Counted from the first letter of the stretch, positions 3,494 through 10,389 are shown. The stretch is 17,582 nucleotides of DNA from an uncultured Candidatus Saccharibacteria bacterium (GCA_964472335.1 CAYYJU010000013.1:1-17582), one strand, 5' to 3'. A program made the numbers and translations. Notes: generated by a model not told the origin, from the sequence alone.

Positions 3494-5245
3494 TTACGAA
3501 ACAAGGACAGCCTTTATGCGTCTAATACCCTGTGCCACAGATTCTTCTTTTTGAATTTTAAAAATTGATAGTTCGTTTGTATTTTTCACATGTGGACCAC
3601 CGCAAAATTCAAGACTAAATGTATCATTATTTACTTCAGGAGTTTTACCTATTGAATACACAGAGACCATGTCAGCGTATTTGACGCCAAATTCCATCTG
3701 AGCGCCTAGTTTTTCTGCTTCAGCTTTTGGCATTTCATGACGAGTGACATTTAGACTTTCTTTTATTTTTTCATTTACCAAGTCCTCTACTTTCTTTTTT
3801 TCTTCATCAGTTAATTTATGGTCACAAAGAAAATCTATACGCAAACGCTCCTCAGTGATATTACTACCTCTTTGTTTTATATTTTTATCCACTACTTGCT
3901 GAAGTGCAGCTAATAATAAGTGATGAGCTGTGTGAAGACGGATGGTTTTTTCATTATGATTTGCTAGTCCCCCTTTAAACATACCTGCAGATGATGTCTG
4001 AGATAATTTTTGATGTTCTGCCATCTTTTTATTAAAATCTTCTTTATCTATAGTCTGTCCTTTTTCTTTTGCTAGTTCTTCGGTTAGCTCTACAGGGAAG
4101 CCATAAGTAGTAGCTAAAATAAATGGGTCAGTACCCTTTTCAAATTCTTTTGCTCCTTCGTTTAAAGTATTTAAAAATCTTTCTTCTTCTTTTTGAAAAA
4201 TTGATTTAATATCTATGTTTTTTAAATCTGGATAAGTAGGTGAATATTTATCGACAAAAAATTTAATTAAATTTGTACTTAAAACTTTATGCGATTCTAA
4301 GGTGCGCATTTTAAATACTGCTCTTCTGATTAATCTCCTTAGTACATAACCCTGATTTTTATTTGCTGGTATAACACCATCGGAAATTAAAAAAGTGGCT
4401 GTCCTTGTATGATCTACAATAACTCTGATAGACTTTTCATCATACTTAAGAGAAGATTCTTTTACTATGTCTAATGCACCTTTTAACAGATCCGTGTCAT
4501 AAGCTGTTTGTTTACCTTGCATTACCGCAGTGATACGCTCTAGTCCTGCACCTGTGTCTACATTTTTTTGTTTTAATTTTCCAATTACTTTTCCATCTTT
4601 CTTTTCATATTCCATGAAAACATCATTCCATATCTCTATGACCCTCTCATCTTTTATTGCTTCCAAGAAATCCGTGTGTGACAAATCTCCGACATCTCCA
4701 GACATGTCATAAAACATTTCACTGCAAGGACCACATGGGCCATTGTCTCCTGGACTCCACCAATTATCTTCAGCTCCTAAGGCATAAATCCTGTTTTCAG
4801 GTATACCTAGGCTCATCCAAATCTTTTTTGATTCTTCATCAAAAGGAGCATTTTCATCTCCTTTAAAAATAGTAAAATACAGACGATTTATATCTAAACC
4901 TAATCCTTCTTCTTTATTAGTTAAAAACTCATAACTCCACTTTATCGCATCTTGCTTGAAATAATCTCCAAGAGACCAATTCCCCATCATTTCAAAAAAA
5001 GAAAAATGGCGCTTATCACCAATATCTTCTAGGTCTCCGGTGCGTACACATTTTTGTATATCTGCTATTCTCTTTCCCATCGGGTGAGATTGCCCCAAGA
5101 GATATGGAACCAATGGTTGCATACCGGCAGTATTAAAAAGTACTGATGGATCGTTTTCAGGTACGAGAGAAGCTGAAGGAATTATTTTATGTTCCCTCTT
5201 TTCAAAAAATTTTAAAAATCTATTTCTGATCTCACTTGAATCCAT
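3494..5245 (-). CDS. alaS: Alanine--tRNA ligase, short form ending after the editing domain
   Basis: N-terminal AlaRS signature (EIRNRFLKFFEKREHKIIPSASLVPENDPSVLFNTAGMQPLVPYLLG), WWSPGDNGPCGPCSE, and the editing-domain zinc motifs HTAHHLL and CGGPHV. It ends ...GIRRIKAVLVS*. I place the start at ATG 5245 (MDSSEIRNRF). The track start at 5311 is a TTG that overlaps the upstream gene. Confidence 0.9.
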   Translation of the reverse strand: MDSSEIRNRFLKFFEKREHKIIPSASLVPENDPSVLFNTAGMQPLVPYLLGQSHPMGKRIADIQKCVRTGDLEDIGDKRHFSFFEMMGNWSLGDYFKQDAIKWSYEFLTNKEEGLGLDINRLYFTIFKGDENAPFDEESKKIWMSLGIPENRIYALGAEDNWWSPGDNGPCGPCSEMFYDMSGDVGDLSHTDFLEAIKDERVIEIWNDVFMEYEKKDGKVIGKLKQKNVDTGAGLERITAVMQGKQTAYDTDLLKGALDIVKESSLKYDEKSIRVIVDHTRTATFLISDGVIPANKNQGYVLRRLIRRAVFKMRTLESHKVLSTNLIKFFVDKYSPTYPDLKNIDIKSIFQKEEERFLNTLNEGAKEFEKGTDPFILATTYGFPVELTEELAKEKGQTIDKEDFNKKMAEHQKLSQTSSAGMFKGGLANHNEKTIRLHTAHHLLLAALQQVVDKNIKQRGSNITEERLRIDFLCDHKLTDEEKKKVEDLVNEKIKESLNVTRHEMPKAEAEKLGAQMEFGVKYADMVSVYSIGKTPEVNNDTFSLEFCGGPHVKNTNELSIFKIQKEESVAQGIRRIKAVLVS

Positions 5246-5252
5246 TTTTTTA

Positions 5253-5729
5253 TTAACTCTGGAATTTATCGTCGATTTTTTCTCCAGCCATTCTTCTGAT
5301 AGGTTTTTCAATTATATTTACTGCGGTTAGCACCACAAATATAATACCAGTGACTATGAAAGCTAGACTGAAAAATCCGAAACCAGAAGCCATACCTACC
5401 CCTGCTGTGACCCACAATCCTCCTGCAGTGGTGAGACCCATCAATCTATTTCCTTGTAAAATTATAGAACCAGCTCCTAGAAAACCAATACCTACGATAA
5501 TTTGTGAAGCTATTCTAGTAGGATCAAATCCTCCAAAAGTTCCGTGTTTTATTGCTATCATTTCAGAAATTATTATGAACAAAGCTGCTCCGATAGAAAC
5601 CAAAGCATGAGTCTTCATGCCAGCTTCTTTGTGAACAATAGCTCTCTCTAAACCAATAAATAGACCTAAGCCTGCAGCTACTACTAATCTTAAAATAACA
5701 TCACCGTTTTGTATTAAAAATTGAGACAT
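5253..5729 (-). CDS. MgtC/SapB family membrane protein
   Basis: Multi-pass hydrophobic protein with the MgtC-family N-terminal signature (RLVVAAGLGLFIGLERAIVHKEAGMKTHALVSIGAALF). I prefer ATG 5729 (MSQFLIQ). The track start at 5744 is a TTG overlapping the mnmA stop. Confidence 0.8.
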   Translation of the reverse strand: MSQFLIQNGDVILRLVVAAGLGLFIGLERAIVHKEAGMKTHALVSIGAALFIIISEMIAIKHGTFGGFDPTRIASQIIVGIGFLGAGSIILQGNRLMGLTTAGGLWVTAGVGMASGFGFFSLAFIVTGIIFVVLTAVNIIEKPIRRMAGEKIDDKFQS

Positions 5730-5736
5730 AAACCAA

Positions 5737-6936
5737 TTATACAACTACTCCACCACCTAGGCAAATGTCACCATCATAGACTACTACAGACTGACCACTC
5801 GCCACCAAGACTGGTTTTTCAAAAATTATCTCAGCACTGTCTTTTGTTTTTATTTTAATTTTGCAAGATAAAAATTCTCCATGATAGCGAATCTGTGCTG
5901 TATATGTTTTATCTTCTTTTGGTATTTCTGAAATCCAATTTATACTCTGCAGTCCAAGATAAAAAGGTGTGCTTTCTTTGGTCTTCGCAACCAAAGCTGG
6001 GTCAGCTATATTCAAGACAGAGTGCGAGCCATGAGAAAGCATCACCTTTTTATCTTGGGAAACAACTAAAATATTTTTCTTTATATCTTTTGCTACAACA
6101 TAATAAGCTCCATCATTCGGGCTCTTTTTAGTGATTACGAAACCATGCCTTTCTCCGAGAGTATGAAACACGGCACCATCATGACGGCCAATCACTTCCC
6201 CGTTCTCATTTACCACATCACCCTTTTTTTCTTTTATGTAATGCTTTAAAAATTCTTTTAAATCAATCGCACCTAAAAAACAAATACCCTGACTATCATG
6301 TTTTTCAGCTACTGGTAATTTGAATTTTTTCGCTAACTTCCTAACCTCTGTTTTCTTTAGGTGTCCTATAGGGAATAAAATTTTAGACAGCTGTTTTTGA
6401 TTTAAAGTCCAAAGGAAATATGATTGGTCCTTGCTTGGGTCTACCCCCTTTAAAAGGCAAGAATTTGTTCTTTCTTCACCTTTCGCAACCAAAGCTGGGT
6501 CAGCTATATTCAAGACAGAGTGCGAGGTGTGAGAAAGAATCAAATTCTTGCGCATTGCATAATGCCCAGTAGCTACAAAATCCGCGCCCATAGAAAGTGC
6601 CTTTTTTAAAAAAGCTCCAAACTTTACTTCTTTATTACACATGACATCTGGGTTTGGAGTCCGCCCAGCTTTATACTCTCTTATCATATAGTCTGCTACT
6701 TCATTTTTATATACATCTTCAAGATCAAGTGCTAGAAATGGTATGTCTAAATACGCAGCCACACGCATGGCGTCTCTCTTTTCATCTTCTTCATTGCATT
6801 CTATGAAATCTGGGTGCCAAGTCTTTATAAAAACCCCCACTACTTCATAGCCTTTTTGTTTTAGTAAGGTAGCGGAAACAGCGCTATCTACGCCCCCAGA
6901 AAGCCCTACAAATATTGTCTGCTTTTTTCTTACCAT
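5737..6936 (-). CDS. mnmA: tRNA 2-thiouridine(34) synthase MnmA carrying two in-frame repeat insertions
   Basis: PP-loop SGGVDSAV, catalytic-Cys contexts PNPDVMCNKEVKF and DSQGICFLG, ATGHYA, KDQSYFLW, and C-terminal GQSVVVYDGDICLGGGVV. At 399 aa it is longer than typical MnmA because ..LSH(T/G)SHSVLNIADPALVAK.. occurs twice. Confidence 0.92.
   Translation of the reverse strand: MVRKKQTIFVGLSGGVDSAVSATLLKQKGYEVVGVFIKTWHPDFIECNEEDEKRDAMRVAAYLDIPFLALDLEDVYKNEVADYMIREYKAGRTPNPDVMCNKEVKFGAFLKKALSMGADFVATGHYAMRKNLILSHTSHSVLNIADPALVAKGEERTNSCLLKGVDPSKDQSYFLWTLNQKQLSKILFPIGHLKKTEVRKLAKKFKLPVAEKHDSQGICFLGAIDLKEFLKHYIKEKKGDVVNENGEVIGRHDGAVFHTLGERHGFVITKKSPNDGAYYVVAKDIKKNILVVSQDKKVMLSHGSHSVLNIADPALVAKTKESTPFYLGLQSINWISEIPKEDKTYTAQIRYHGEFLSCKIKIKTKDSAEIIFEKPVLVASGQSVVVYDGDICLGGGVVV
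5954..6058. repeat. Palindromic element copy A (~105 bp) inside mnmA
   Basis: Imperfect hairpin. The arm 5954-5969 (ccaagataaaaaggtg) is the exact reverse complement of 6043-6058. Further pairs are tgctttct/agaaagca, tgg/cca and tcgca/tgcga. The 45-bp core at 5984-6028 is identical to copy B. Confidence 0.85.
6457..6551. repeat. Palindromic element copy B (~95 bp) inside mnmA
   Basis: Imperfect hairpin. The arm 6457-6467 (gcaagaatttg) is the exact reverse complement of 6541-6551. Further pairs are ttctttct/agaaagaa, cacc/ggtg and tcgca/tgcga. The 45-bp core at 6482-6526 is identical to copy A. Confidence 0.85.
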
Positions 6937-6951
6937 AGATGTAATTTACCT

Positions 6952-7884
6952 TTATTTTAAAAATTTAGCTATATTTAGCTTGTGCTCAGAAAAACTCTTT
7001 GCATAGTGAGTATTCCCTTCTTTGTCGTGAATATAATATAAATAAGATGATTTCTTTGGATTCAATGCGGCATTTATAGCCTCTAATCCAGGGTTGCCGA
7101 TAGGTTCTCTTGGTAATCCTTTTACTTTGTATGTATTTGGTTCGGCGTCCACCTGAAGTGGCATACCTATACTTAGTCTCTTCCATAAGATTCCAGATAT
7201 CAATTCGCGGTCAGCATCACCACTCGCTTCTTTTTCTAGTATTGAAGCCATGATAATTATTTCATTTTCAGTTTTTCCAGACAGAGAGATAGCTTCACGC
7301 AGTGGGGCAATTTTTTTCTCATAATTTTTACTCATAGATTCAATAGCTTTTATCTCTGTATCTGTGCTCAAGAAATAATAAGTGTCAGGGAAAAGATAAC
7401 CCTCTTTGGCTTTTAATAGAAAATTATTTTTATTAAAATATTTTAATTTCTTACTATATACTTCTACTATTTCATTTATATTTAAGCCTTCAGGTATGGT
7501 GACTGCCACTCTAGTTGTGTAGCGTTCCCCTTTTACTATGAGGAGAGCCGCTTTATATACAGGCATTTTTTCTTCAAATAAATAGTCTGAGAATTTTATA
7601 CGTTTCTCACCACCAAAGGCTATGGCAAAAATTTCAAACATAGAACTTGAACGTATAATATTTTCCTTCTTTAATTTTAGTGAAATACTATGTAGGCTCA
7701 TTCCTGGCTCTACTTGTAATATAGTACCTGGTATAAAATTAGATGGCGCACTAAAAAGAAAAAAATATATTAAAATAAAAAAAACTAATACAAAAAAAGA
7801 AATCCCAAAAAACTTAAAGTTTCTAGACTTTAAAAAAGAATATCTTTCATCCTTTAAAGGAATATCTTGTATATTTTCTTCCAT
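6952..7884 (-). CDS. mltG: Endolytic murein transglycosylase MltG (YceG-like)
   Basis: N-terminal TM anchor (FFGISFFVLVFFILIYFFLF) and YceG-family motifs (MASILEKEA, GLPREPIGNPGLEAINAALNP, YLYYIHDKEGNTHYAKSFSEH). I prefer ATG 7884 (MEENIQD), 1 nt after the upstream stop. The track start at 7938 is a TTG overlapping the upstream gene. Confidence 0.85.
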   Translation of the reverse strand: MEENIQDIPLKDERYSFLKSRNFKFFGISFFVLVFFILIYFFLFSAPSNFIPGTILQVEPGMSLHSISLKLKKENIIRSSSMFEIFAIAFGGEKRIKFSDYLFEEKMPVYKAALLIVKGERYTTRVAVTIPEGLNINEIVEVYSKKLKYFNKNNFLLKAKEGYLFPDTYYFLSTDTEIKAIESMSKNYEKKIAPLREAISLSGKTENEIIIMASILEKEASGDADRELISGILWKRLSIGMPLQVDAEPNTYKVKGLPREPIGNPGLEAINAALNPKKSSYLYYIHDKEGNTHYAKSFSEHKLNIAKFLK

Positions 7885-7885
7885 A

Positions 7886-9286
7886 TTAAGTCGGTAAGTT
7901 TGTAGGTGGAGAAGCGTCAGTAGATTCAATACGCTCAAGTGTAGGAACTTTTAATATCTGACCAGGGAAATGCCACAGGGTAGCAATCTCTTCGGTGTTT
8001 AAGACGAAAGTTTGTGGGTGAAAATATGGCAAAAAGAAAGGTTGTATTAAAACTGAACCCGCAATAATACTTTCAAATGGCCAACTAAGTGCATGCTTGT
8101 TGAACAAATGATGCCTCATAGGTAAATGGAAAAATCCTCTCTCTCTGTATTCATGAAGCATTCTATCTGCAAGCAACATTACTTTTTCTTGTGAAAGACC
8201 AAATAATCCACTATATGCATCTGCCTGTGTGGAATTCATACGCACTAGTCCATTTACATCCGGAGCATCGTACTGACGAAAGATAAGACGGATATTTCTT
8301 CTACTACTCATATCCCAAGCTTCTTTTTTTGCTACATACATCACTCTTATACCTGTCTCAAAACCAATCTTTGAAGTTTTAGCACTCATAGCTTTTGCTG
8401 CTCTATCTAGATAAGCAGGCACACGAACTTCGATTCTAGAGTTTCCGGGATCACCTGGGCGTGCTTTTATACTAGTGTAATCTTTAAGTAACTTAAATAA
8501 TTCATTTCTAGCTTCTACTACCCAATCATGAGTACCAAACCAAGTACCTTTGGTGTGATACATCTTCTTTACAGGAGTGATCACAATCTGCAACCACATT
8601 TGCTCACCTTTTTTTAATGAACCAAAAAGTTCTACAACTGGAGAAATCGGATCTACTTTATATTCTTCTTTTGGATCTTTATCTAGTCCAAAATCAACAT
8701 ATGTTTTTAGTGGATAGGCTTCTGGCTTTAACAAACCGAATTCGCAACCCCATCCCATCCATGCACTCTCTGGACTTATTTTATCAACTGCCAAAGTATA
8801 GTCTGGGACTTCTCTTATTTGGGACTGAGGATACTGAGCATACATCTGTGTCTCTATAAGACCTCGAATACGGGTAGGTGTGCGAATATAAAAATGTACT
8901 TGTCCATCGATAGACGCTATTTCCAAAGAAAACCAAAACCAGACGGCTCCTTGCCAATACTCTTCTTTACCTCCTTTATAACTCCAGTGATAGAGAGCAT
9001 TGGTAATAAAAAGCTCCATAGCTTTTGGTGAACGCAACACTTCTCTCGGAGGAATAATTTCTAGAAGGACAAAATCAATACCGGAAATAAAATCTTGTCT
9101 TATATAATGAATCCACATTTTGTACGCTACCCAGCCGATAAAAAAAGTTCCTATCAGTGGAAGGATGCCTTTTACCAAACCATACAACATGTCGTAATAC
9201 CAAAGAAGAAAAACAGCTACTGCAGCAAGAAGCCAAGGCCAATATTCCATAATTGCAGTTTCTAGACCTTCTGTAAGCTGATCCAT
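7886..9286 (-). CDS. Hypothetical membrane protein: two N-terminal TM helices and a ~390-aa domain of unknown function
   Basis: The 466-aa ORF has an ATG start. Its hydrophobic segments are WPWLLAAVAVFLLWYY and LPLIGTFFIGWVAYKMWIHYI. It is Trp/Tyr-rich and I found no P-loop (GxxxxGK[ST]) or other catalytic motif. Confidence 0.7.
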   Translation of the reverse strand: MDQLTEGLETAIMEYWPWLLAAVAVFLLWYYDMLYGLVKGILPLIGTFFIGWVAYKMWIHYIRQDFISGIDFVLLEIIPPREVLRSPKAMELFITNALYHWSYKGGKEEYWQGAVWFWFSLEIASIDGQVHFYIRTPTRIRGLIETQMYAQYPQSQIREVPDYTLAVDKISPESAWMGWGCEFGLLKPEAYPLKTYVDFGLDKDPKEEYKVDPISPVVELFGSLKKGEQMWLQIVITPVKKMYHTKGTWFGTHDWVVEARNELFKLLKDYTSIKARPGDPGNSRIEVRVPAYLDRAAKAMSAKTSKIGFETGIRVMYVAKKEAWDMSSRRNIRLIFRQYDAPDVNGLVRMNSTQADAYSGLFGLSQEKVMLLADRMLHEYRERGFFHLPMRHHLFNKHALSWPFESIIAGSVLIQPFFLPYFHPQTFVLNTEEIATLWHFPGQILKVPTLERIESTDASPPTNLPT

Positions 9287-9306
9287 GTTAATAGTGTAAT
9301 ATAAAA

Positions 9307-9347
9307 AAATTAAAAAATACAGCTTTTTTAGCTGTATTTTTTAATTT
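9307..9347 (-). terminator. Perfect 17-bp hairpin, a likely intrinsic (bidirectional-type) terminator after the sigma-r4/HARE-HTH gene
   Basis: aaattaaaaaatacagc (9307-9323), loop tttttta, gctgtattttttaattt (9331-9347). The arms are exact reverse complements. The minus-strand transcript continues with ttttttatatt after the stem. It begins 14 nt after the upstream gene's stop codon (9361-9363). Confidence 0.7.
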
Positions 9348-9360
9348 AATATTTTATTCT

Positions 9361-10389
9361 TTAAACTACGTTGTAAAGTCCACTCTTATCAACTTTAAAG
9401 TATTTGGGATTTACTAAATTCACTAATATTGTGTTTTTCTTGAAGTATCTTTCTTTGTTTACTTTTTCAATCACATCATCTTTTGTCATAGGGCCTTCTC
9501 TCTTTAGTATGTCTCGTATTACTTCACGAGCAGTACCAGCTTTGTAACCCCACTCAGATAAAGCATACATTCCTCTCCCTACTAATACAAAGCGAGAATC
9601 TTTTATAAGTTCGTTGTGGCAAGTAGCATAATGTACTTTCTTATTAAATGTCTTTGAAATAGAATTTGCTACCTCTTTGAAATGCATTGGTGAACCGTGT
9701 CTTCTCATGACTAAGAAAGCATAATCTTTTACTCCACGAGTACGGACATTTGGACTTGAAGCTTTACCCCATTCTCCAAATGGATTCTTTGCAATCTTCT
9801 TTGACATAGATAGCCATCTCTTTGCTATCTCATCGTCTCGGTATTGCTCGGATACATCTTTCATATGATCAAAAAACATTTTAATCATTTCGGTCTCTGG
9901 TATTAGGTCTTCGTCTTTTAGACTTGTGTAAAGTTTCTTCAATGTAGCGTGAACTTTTTCACTCATCTCATCATCTACGCTAAAACGAGTATGAAAATGA
10001 TCATCTTCGCGGTGCTTTTTAAAAGAATCACTCAAAGTAAGGAAAAAGTGAATATGGTTTTGAGTAGTCTTGTCTTTTGATATGTATGGCAATAACTCAT
10101 GCTCTGGAATAATTGAACCTAGGTTTTTTATAAGTTGTTTCAATTCTTCAAAAGCTGCTTGTTCTAATTTGTAAGCATCTGACTTTTTAATAGCAGACAA
10201 AGCCACGTCTTCTATTTGACGCACACGCTCTCTGGTGATTTTATATTTTTTACCAATTTCCTCGAGAGTGTGCCTCTCGCCGTCAGGTGTCAACCCAAAA
10301 CGGTTCATAATAACATCAAAAGACCGGTCCGTAAGATGTGAAATTATTTTTTTAGTAATTTTTTTTGGTTTAAAAGTTATTGTTGACAT
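9361..10389 (-). CDS. Sigma-70 region-4 HTH plus C-terminal HARE-HTH (RNAP delta-like) domain protein
   Basis: The N-terminal segment DRSFDVIMNRFGLTPDGERHTLEEIGKKYKITRERVRQIEDVALSAIKK matches the sigma-70 region 4.2 pattern. The C-terminal segment KDYAFLVMRRHGSPMHFKEVANSI...ELIKDSRFVLVGRGMYALSEWGY matches the HARE-HTH pattern (..D.RF..vg.g.w.L..w). No sigma region 2 is evident. Confidence 0.6.
   Translation of the reverse strand: MSTITFKPKKITKKIISHLTDRSFDVIMNRFGLTPDGERHTLEEIGKKYKITRERVRQIEDVALSAIKKSDAYKLEQAAFEELKQLIKNLGSIIPEHELLPYISKDKTTQNHIHFFLTLSDSFKKHREDDHFHTRFSVDDEMSEKVHATLKKLYTSLKDEDLIPETEMIKMFFDHMKDVSEQYRDDEIAKRWLSMSKKIAKNPFGEWGKASSPNVRTRGVKDYAFLVMRRHGSPMHFKEVANSISKTFNKKVHYATCHNELIKDSRFVLVGRGMYALSEWGYKAGTAREVIRDILKREGPMTKDDVIEKVNKERYFKKNTILVNLVNPKYFKVDKSGLYNVV

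Follow-up and report, generated by a model that had tools for sequence, protein, structure and literature searches.

Palindromic inserts in mnmA

The 17,582-nt stretch of DNA analysed here (hereafter the window) comes from a genome labelled as an uncultured Candidatus Saccharibacteria bacterium (GCA_964472335.1, CAYYJU010000013.1:1-17582). Its mnmA gene carries two in-frame copies of one palindromic element, referred to as family A (Table 1), and relatives carry hairpins of many other families at the same two codon positions. The host genome is of the Paceibacteria/Nomurabacteria kind within Patescibacteria. The identity of the host open reading frame (ORF) is supported by three Pfam MnmA domains (2.6e-72, 8.3e-20, and 8e-18). 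The PP-loop SGGVDS and both catalytic cysteine contexts (C100 and C219) are invariant columns in an alignment of homologues, in agreement with an initial sequence-only reading of the window that had called these motifs intact.

The two copies share an identical core of 45 nt. A repeat search places them in the same orientation with their starts 498 nt, or exactly 166 codons, apart, as the sequence-only reading had reported. That reading had also described weaker similarity beyond the core, and the copies are indeed 81% identical in register over 96 nt (5956-6051 versus 6454-6549). Within the window, a 29-nt segment taken from the core has matches at these two copies alone, with 0 expected from 200 shuffles. 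The mnmA frame runs through both copies with no stop and yields exactly the two peptides first proposed, within which lies SHSVLNIADPALVAK. Both copies are palindromic as claimed, and an RNA fold of equal stability was obtained in 0 of 200 shuffles. A sliding-window energy scan ranks the two palindromes as the strongest local structures of the whole window, above the tRNA-Tyr gene. In the protein, the site-1 palindrome (about residues 129-160) has GHYA(M) on one side and LLKG on the other, and the site-2 palindrome (about residues 293-328) is flanked by NILVVSQ and the INW of the C-terminal barrel.

Table 1. The mnmA gene of the window, its two palindromes, and their shared core
Feature	Position	Strand	Details
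mnmA coding sequence, host of both elements	5737..6936	-	399 aa; ORF list, translation, Pfam tRNA_Me_trans/_M/_C, PDB MnmA matches ~1e-81
Family-A palindrome, protein site 1	6457..6551	-	95 nt; inverted repeat arms 6457-6487 / 6521-6551; fold -38.1 kcal/mol, z -5.7
Net site-1 insertion relative to the empty L002 allele	6463..6543	-	27 codons (81 nt), about residues L132-N158; codon-threaded alignment with L002 and L023
Family-A palindrome, protein site 2	5954..6058	-	105 nt; fold -45.2 kcal/mol, z -6.8; 15-bp perfect outer stem
45-nt core, site-1 copy, apical part of the hairpin	6482..6526	-	identical to 5984-6028
45-nt core, site-2 copy, apical part of the hairpin	5984..6028	-	identical to 6482-6526

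Insertion status and predicted structure

Both segments are lineage-specific inserts. They are gapped against the solved MnmAs of E. coli, B. subtilis, and S. pneumoniae, which bears out the earlier impression that the protein is longer than E. coli MnmA at both sites. Close relatives have short alleles, at both sites in proteins P0037 and P0067 and at one site in others. Homologous peptides in unrelated phyla had been named as a sign of ancestral protein sequence; MnmAs from other phyla lack the segments, and the PDB MnmAs show gaps at both positions. Nor did the data reveal the other outcome then envisaged, a core found nowhere else combined with a structural domain duplication. Some short, nominally empty site-2 alleles retain a mini-palindrome, which in locus L023 is a 15-bp stem (z -7.7).

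An AlphaFold2 model of the window MnmA has a mean predicted local distance difference test score (pLDDT) of 79.8 and a predicted template modelling score of 0.73. Both inserts are modelled as low-confidence coil between confident host strands, with a pLDDT of about 56-66 for residues 134-156 and below 50 for residues 298-320. The suggestion that the inserted peptides form surface loops is thus consistent with the model, in which both are predicted loops.

Hairpin families at the two sites

Nearly all of 120 homologues (66-80% identical) have an insert of 20-45 aa at each of the same two positions. The insert peptides fall into about a dozen or more unrelated families. The family classes are based on motifs and replaced a single-linkage clustering, which had chained all insert peptides through their host flanks. 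Family A, that of the window, has the motif LSHGSHS.LN.ADRALVA, while the motifs of other families include FSQSLGD..TTPSKKH, KNFGAFALGDIGQGTHD, FLHPADGTFR, and DIFLLKNSSRLAPSRS. Inserts outside family A are also hairpins wherever their DNA was obtained. In each such case the pattern within one genome is a core common to both sites on basal stems that differ from each other and are each self-complementary.

Two of the peptide families are a single element at the level of DNA. Family F (DIFLLKNSSRLAPSRSVAS) is read from one strand of this element and family O (LRSATARVLR.FSAEKY) from the other, as seen at site 2 of L003 compared with site 2 of P0063, P0040, and P0077. This F/O element lies in mnmA in either orientation, and its frame is open both ways. 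DNA families must therefore be fewer than peptide families, and insertion occurs in both orientations.

Inserts are far denser in mnmA than in its neighbours. Seven neighbouring gene families, each represented by 6-11 genomes, contain one palindromic in-frame insert in total, so that mnmA is strongly enriched. The RNAfold window scan was noisy, and most of its hits within other ORFs are ordinary coding sequence.

The single insert among the neighbouring genes lies in BipA/TypA of locus L009 (1158-1230). It is a GC-rich, near-perfect palindrome (-55 kcal/mol) that is in frame and encodes the peptide YPTPALPKGEGEDRLPLGGRSGGGD. BipA/TypA orthologues lack it, and it resembles the GC-rich insert families of some MnmAs (KEGVGGG..TPP..GGE). 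MnmA itself has further small lineage-specific inserts (alignment A1: P0017 with L006/L013, P0010/L007, and P0008/P0013/P0021/L005). One, LVRPSAEI, precedes FVATGHY; the C-terminal barrel has AEGPERSRRA, and the central domain (L)APQEAG or VPSE.EGG.

Turnover and exchange

The content of the two sites changes between close relatives. With the inserts masked, the nearest relative, P0006, has an MnmA 92.9% identical to that of the window, yet families N and B occupy its sites. P0037 follows at 88%, and its alleles are short at the two sites alike. Family sharing stays flat at about 8-11% across host identities of 75-90% and, judged from these comparisons, is decoupled from host phylogeny. When the DNA of the window is compared with that of L022, identity is mostly 0.8-0.95 along mnmA and falls to 0.44-0.59 inside the two insert blocks. 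At site 1, L022 has another hairpin in the same gap between GHYA and L.KG, and the outer stem of this hairpin is perfect over 21 bp. By such comparisons between genomes, the gain, loss, and replacement of cassettes is far faster than the divergence of mnmA.

Within a genome the two sites tend to agree. Of 107 genomes, 24 have one family in both places, whereas chance would give 9.7±2.4 and none of 10,000 permutations exceeded 18. Family-A copies cluster by genome and not by site: identity of the central core is 94.5% within genomes and 87% between them, whether or not the same site is compared. For the outer arms, identity is about 67% whichever copies are compared. A derivation of the outer stems from site-specific host flanks was rejected on this ground, the outer arms being equally alike in same-site and cross-site comparisons (0.673 versus 0.676). 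One outer-stem consensus at both sites and in an intergenic copy also contradicts such an origin.

One contig carries a rearranged copy of the gene. In L024 (551-1084; protein P0122), a Hainich groundwater contig of 1220 nt and 2x coverage that matches the L005/L014 genome, an in-frame fusion joins the site-1 repeat to the sequence that follows the site-2 repeat. The deletion removes the catalytic middle of MnmA, and may be either a rare repeat-mediated event or an assembly collapse across the direct repeats.

Constraint on arms, core, peptide, and frame

The arms of the palindromes vary in step. Alignment A3 holds 19 distinct family-A copies, all of which fold into stems of about 40 bp. Across the 35 pairs of the consensus structure, 95.2% of cells are paired, compared with 85.8% in shuffles and 40-50% in slid-partner controls. 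Double-sided changes are present in 17 of the 35 pairs (62 cells), and none of 500 shuffles equals the observed alignment on any measure. Stem cells are 93-95% paired although the sequences of the arms have diverged by about 30%. Watson-Crick pairs account for 494 of 532 cells in the long stem, alongside 9 G·T and 15 A·C. This lack of wobble enrichment suggests that symmetry is upheld on the DNA duplex and not on mRNA alone. Covariation without G·U enrichment therefore points to maintenance of arm symmetry at the DNA level.

The core is conserved to a degree that the host gene is not. Host mnmA DNA is 75.5% identical between genomes overall and 52% at third codon positions, whereas the 55-nt core averages 87% and reaches 100% (L003 versus L005) and depends little on host identity (r = 0.21). 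Substitutions within the element are even over codon positions, with a nonsynonymous-to-synonymous ratio of about 4:1, which indicates that the insert peptide itself is not under sequence selection. A DNA scan independent of ORF calling finds the mnmA frame open in 19/19 copies and the other sense frames open in 0/19, the pattern that would be expected if read-through is obligatory. The element termini read (C)GCAAGAT; some intergenic copies end in TA, and coding copies do not.

Two other roles were considered and set aside. Translational bypassing of the T4 gene-60 type was rejected because the frame is always open and no take-off codon with a matching landing codon is present. A tRNA-anticodon mimic in the apical loop, suggested by the sequence, was dropped because unrelated families occupy the same sites. 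A search of Rfam 15 matched no family, the best score being 23.9 bits against a gathering score of 245, for a generic microRNA-precursor hairpin.

These patterns bear on whether the segments are protein sequence of long standing. It is highly improbable that they are ancestral, or an internal duplication of an MnmA domain, with a function at the protein level. Such an origin would fit two peptides that are alike and conserved among many relatives, but it does not explain their absence from the E. coli, B. subtilis, and S. pneumoniae structures and from close relatives, or the unrelated peptides in a relative that is 93% identical. Substitutions without codon-position bias at a ratio of about 4:1, the low-confidence coil in AlphaFold, and a DNA sequence that is a palindrome with co-varying arms speak against it as well.

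An origin of the repeats in misassembly or chimerism is less probable still, its likelihood being close to nil. The low-coverage contig L024, with its collapse or deletion between repeats, illustrates that such repeats can confuse assemblers. The same architecture is nevertheless present in independent NCBI, ENA, JGI, and Logan assemblies, on contigs of up to 672 kb, each time with an intact ORF and with compensated differences between the copies. An ancestral or duplicated segment and an assembly artefact are both effectively excluded.

Copies outside mnmA

The distribution of family A is narrow. Scans used a degenerate 22-base core pattern with exact matching and covered this one family; an exact 25-mer of the window core found nothing. 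In 185,579 species genomes the pattern has 13 matches at nine loci, 12 in mnmA and one intergenic, and those in mnmA are mostly paired at a distance of 498-522 nt. JGI metagenome contigs add 7 matches, all in mnmA, so that 19 of the 20 exact-pattern matches in species genomes and JGI metagenomes lie in this gene. The 22-base pattern was not found in viral contigs, and contigs of 173-378 kb have no copy beyond mnmA by the same pattern. An exhaustive search of representative proteins with the 32-aa insert peptide returned a deleted MnmA and two spurious repeat proteins; no other protein family thus contains the insert peptide at detectable similarity.

The core element does occur elsewhere, a point that the sequence-only reading had proposed to check. 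In L012 a family-A copy is intergenic (7665-7770), a few nucleotides past the stop codon of recO. The F/O family likewise has intergenic members. One, in L005, lies just past a sigma-factor gene's stop codon (6090-6205, the same as in L014; -47 kcal/mol), and another fills the yceG-mnmA spacer in L013 (3470-3590, the same as in L006; -52.8 kcal/mol). These copies occupy a terminator-like position and start within a few nucleotides of the stop codon.

The spacer after the sigma-factor-like gene of the window (9361-10389, minus strand) has a hairpin of its own at 9287-9360, with 18 bp of perfect AT-rich stem (scan window 9251-9350, -27.7 kcal/mol). The same spacer contains different hairpins in relatives, that of L005 being the F/O element.

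The sequence-only reading had likened the elements to Rickettsia palindromic elements (RPEs). An in-frame palindrome that would be translated through is borne out by the data; a repeat dispersed across many genes is not, given 19 of 20 matches in mnmA and one insert among the neighbouring genes. Many families turning over at the same two positions and arms kept complementary also speak against a dispersed RPE or MITE (miniature inverted-repeat transposable element). It is accordingly quite unlikely that the elements are an ordinary dispersed transposon of the MITE or RPE type that inserts at random and is seen in mnmA because two of its loops tolerate inserts. The elements do share with such transposons a palindromic, enzyme-less, ORF-compatible form, in-frame insertion, and intergenic copies, and the unrelated GC-rich palindrome in frame in the L009 BipA gene behaves like an RPE (PMC10969869). 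Against this stand the narrow distribution and the large contigs without other copies, the single insert in seven neighbouring gene families, and the lack of a target-site duplication. Random insertion with a filter of tolerance also does not predict the density at which different families recur at the same codon positions.

Neighbouring alanyl-tRNA synthetase genes

Two side observations concern the gene for alanyl-tRNA synthetase. In the window its ORF (3494-5311) is listed with a TTG start and overlaps the upstream MgtC ORF (5253-5744) by 59 nt; the actual start codon probably lies further downstream. In L001 (5491-7241) the enzyme is encoded as two overlapping ORFs, a catalytic part of 411 aa and a tRNA_SAD part of 172 aa, whereas the window and the other loci have one undivided ORF of 579-605 aa. 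The division could be real, or it could stem from a frameshift or from an error in sequencing.

Interpretation

The elements are probably selfish palindromic cassettes that are translated through, have a gene-specific hotspot, and act at the level of nucleic acid. The family-A pair would be a single DNA palindrome, about 105 nt long, present twice, each time in what is modelled as a permissive surface loop of MnmA. The ribosome would read through the hairpins and add about 20-27, sometimes more, functionally neutral and disordered residues. The cassettes are dispensable, to judge from the short alleles at both sites of P0037 and P0067.

Several processes might account for the behaviour of such cassettes. 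Likeness between the two copies of one genome may come from short gene-conversion tracts passed between the direct repeats, or from renewed seeding by whichever family is currently active. Complementarity of the arms might be due to arm-to-arm correction, by intrastrand conversion or template switching, or it might be selected because propagation needs an extruded hairpin. Candidate movers are a trans-acting, hairpin-specific recombinase, a Y1 transposase, or homologous replacement following natural transformation. Persistence of the hotspot is best accounted for by trapping, in that imprecise loss would break the reading frame, and new palindromes may preferentially replace resident ones or insert into them.

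A further and rather doubtful proposal is that the elements are gene-specific homing palindromes. These would be enzyme-less cassettes of about 100 nt whose apical core is recognised by a trans-acting, hairpin-specific recombinase or nuclease, or by post-uptake recombination machinery. They would be swapped either way round at two mnmA codon positions across Paceibacteria, with their arms continuously re-symmetrised. If true, they would constitute a new class of site-specific selfish element within a translated gene. As a variant of this proposal, the hairpins might have been co-opted for DNA- or RNA-level control of mnmA.

It is unlikely that the hairpins are instead functional cis-acting structures of mnmA under selection, whether as DNA or as signals for pausing, stability, or processing of the mRNA. 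Any long hairpin would suffice for such a role, so that families could differ. Both sites are filled in nearly all relatives, and a mini-hairpin persists in some "empty" site-2 alleles (L023, z -7.7), as a cis-acting role would lead one to expect. The double-short alleles of P0037 and P0067 indicate that the hairpins are dispensable, and a long stem with 9 G·T against 15 A·C, that is without G·U enrichment, argues against selection specific to mRNA. Occurrence of the same element in both orientations (F/O) and in intergenic spots is difficult to reconcile with such a role. A generic hairpin function also leaves unexplained why a dozen unrelated cores should each be conserved, and Rfam holds no matching family.

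Several points weigh against the interpretation of the elements as selfish cassettes. The strong compensatory covariation of the arms, the conservation of the core beyond host synonymous sites, and the extreme enrichment in mnmA over neighbouring genes, which makes it a hotspot, would all suit a cis-acting function, and a function at the sequence level is an alternative reason for the conserved core. The near confinement of family A to mnmA (19 of 20 matches) is odd for a generic selfish repeat. It is the patchy distribution of families that suggests movement. No mobilising enzyme was identified and, as the sequence-only reading had also noted, the window ORFs scanned contain no transposase domain. 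No target-site duplication was seen at the junctions of at least 30 copies. The genomes were examined over about 8-21 kb each, around mnmA except in L012, and genome-wide reach is that of the strict 22-base pattern.

Significance

Full-text literature searches returned no description of such elements in Patescibacteria or the Candidate Phyla Radiation (CPR). Translated-through palindromes, known from the RPEs of Rickettsia and from some mitochondria, are now extended to the CPR. Several of their features are unreported for RPEs. These include two fixed hotspots in one housekeeping gene, the exchange of about a dozen or more families there, arm complementarity at the DNA level, and a core conserved far above host synonymous sites. 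The elements offer a natural system for the survival and spread of long palindromes in tiny genomes, and for the gain of new sequence by protein loops. On the practical side, assembly and gene calling can go astray at the direct repeats, as L024 illustrates, and the inserts inflate the apparent divergence of MnmA in CPR phylogenies.

Comparison with known systems

Homing elements such as inteins and group I introns resemble the mnmA elements in their fixed positions within a conserved gene, their sporadic occurrence out of step with host phylogeny, and their cycles of gain, decay, and loss. They appear to differ in that palindromes of about 100 nt are too small to encode an endonuclease, and the mnmA elements give no sign of RNA or protein splicing. 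The strictly open frame (19/19 copies) instead suggests that these elements would remain in the protein.

Repetitive extragenic palindromic (REP) sequences and REPINs are moved by RAYT (Y1) transposases, and in REPINs a single-copy Y1 transposase works in trans on hairpins of DNA. REP sequences and REPINs are extragenic, present in high copy, and tagged by GTAG or CGTC (PMC3733652). The mnmA elements share hairpin units of about 100 nt with conserved structure, but they are intragenic and low-copy and have (C)GCAAGAT termini, and the window has no RAYT-like gene. The one gene of this kind that was seen, a weak match, is in L003 (6508-7240; GCA_028718635.1, JAQULK010000001.1). It encodes a Y1/RAYT-like transposase of 226 aa (PF01797, 27.4 bits; NF047646, 27 bits and below cut-off). 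The same 25-nt hairpin, CAGACAGCGCCT(T/A)AGGCGCTGTCTG, lies on both sides of it, forming a REPtron-like unit between the sigma-factor and DUF8128 genes. These flanking hairpins have no sequence relationship with those of mnmA.

MITEs and terminator-like mobile hairpins (Correia/NEMIS, QMITE, and SPRITE) are small and non-autonomous, often lie just downstream of genes, and in some cases overlap ORFs (PMC5896051, PMC10969869). Inverted-repeat ends and the intergenic copies near stop codons are points of likeness. The mnmA elements differ in showing no target-site duplication and in their very low copy number by exact-pattern scans, and no parental insertion sequence (IS) was identified for them, the transposase search having covered ORFs of the window. 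The whole mnmA unit is moreover a near-perfect palindrome, whereas MITEs have short terminal inverted repeats around unique sequence.

The coding palindromes of Nematomorpha mitochondria have arms whose identity is actively maintained, for which arm conversion or template switching and possibly a parasitic nature have been proposed (PMC6649704). The mnmA elements agree in being inverted repeats within coding sequence whose arms are kept matched (95% paired). The arms in Nematomorpha encode conserved parts of proteins, whereas those in mnmA encode dispensable loop residues that evolve neutrally. The nematomorph repeats are also not shared families, unlike the mnmA palindromes, which are common to several genomes and to both sites and have a conserved apical core.

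RPEs are palindromic, lie in frame in conserved genes as well as between genes, comprise several families, and encode peptides compatible with the host fold (PMC10969869). They are dispersed, unrelated genes in R. conorii carrying 44 of them (PMC10969869), and are reported to lose repeat identity over time (PMC6649704). In contrast, family A is nearly confined to two codon positions of mnmA, as far as a strict pattern and incomplete genomes reveal, and within short times one mnmA family takes the place of another at an unchanged position, with arms that stay complementary. The host phylum is also a different one, and the likeness is drawn from published descriptions. In the size of a hairpin-forming unit and in-frame insertion with a tolerated peptide the two systems agree: RPE units are enzyme-less and about 100-150 bp long, and the mnmA units, of 95-118 nt, lie in frame in predicted loops and also occur between genes. 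RPEs are the closest known system to the mnmA elements.

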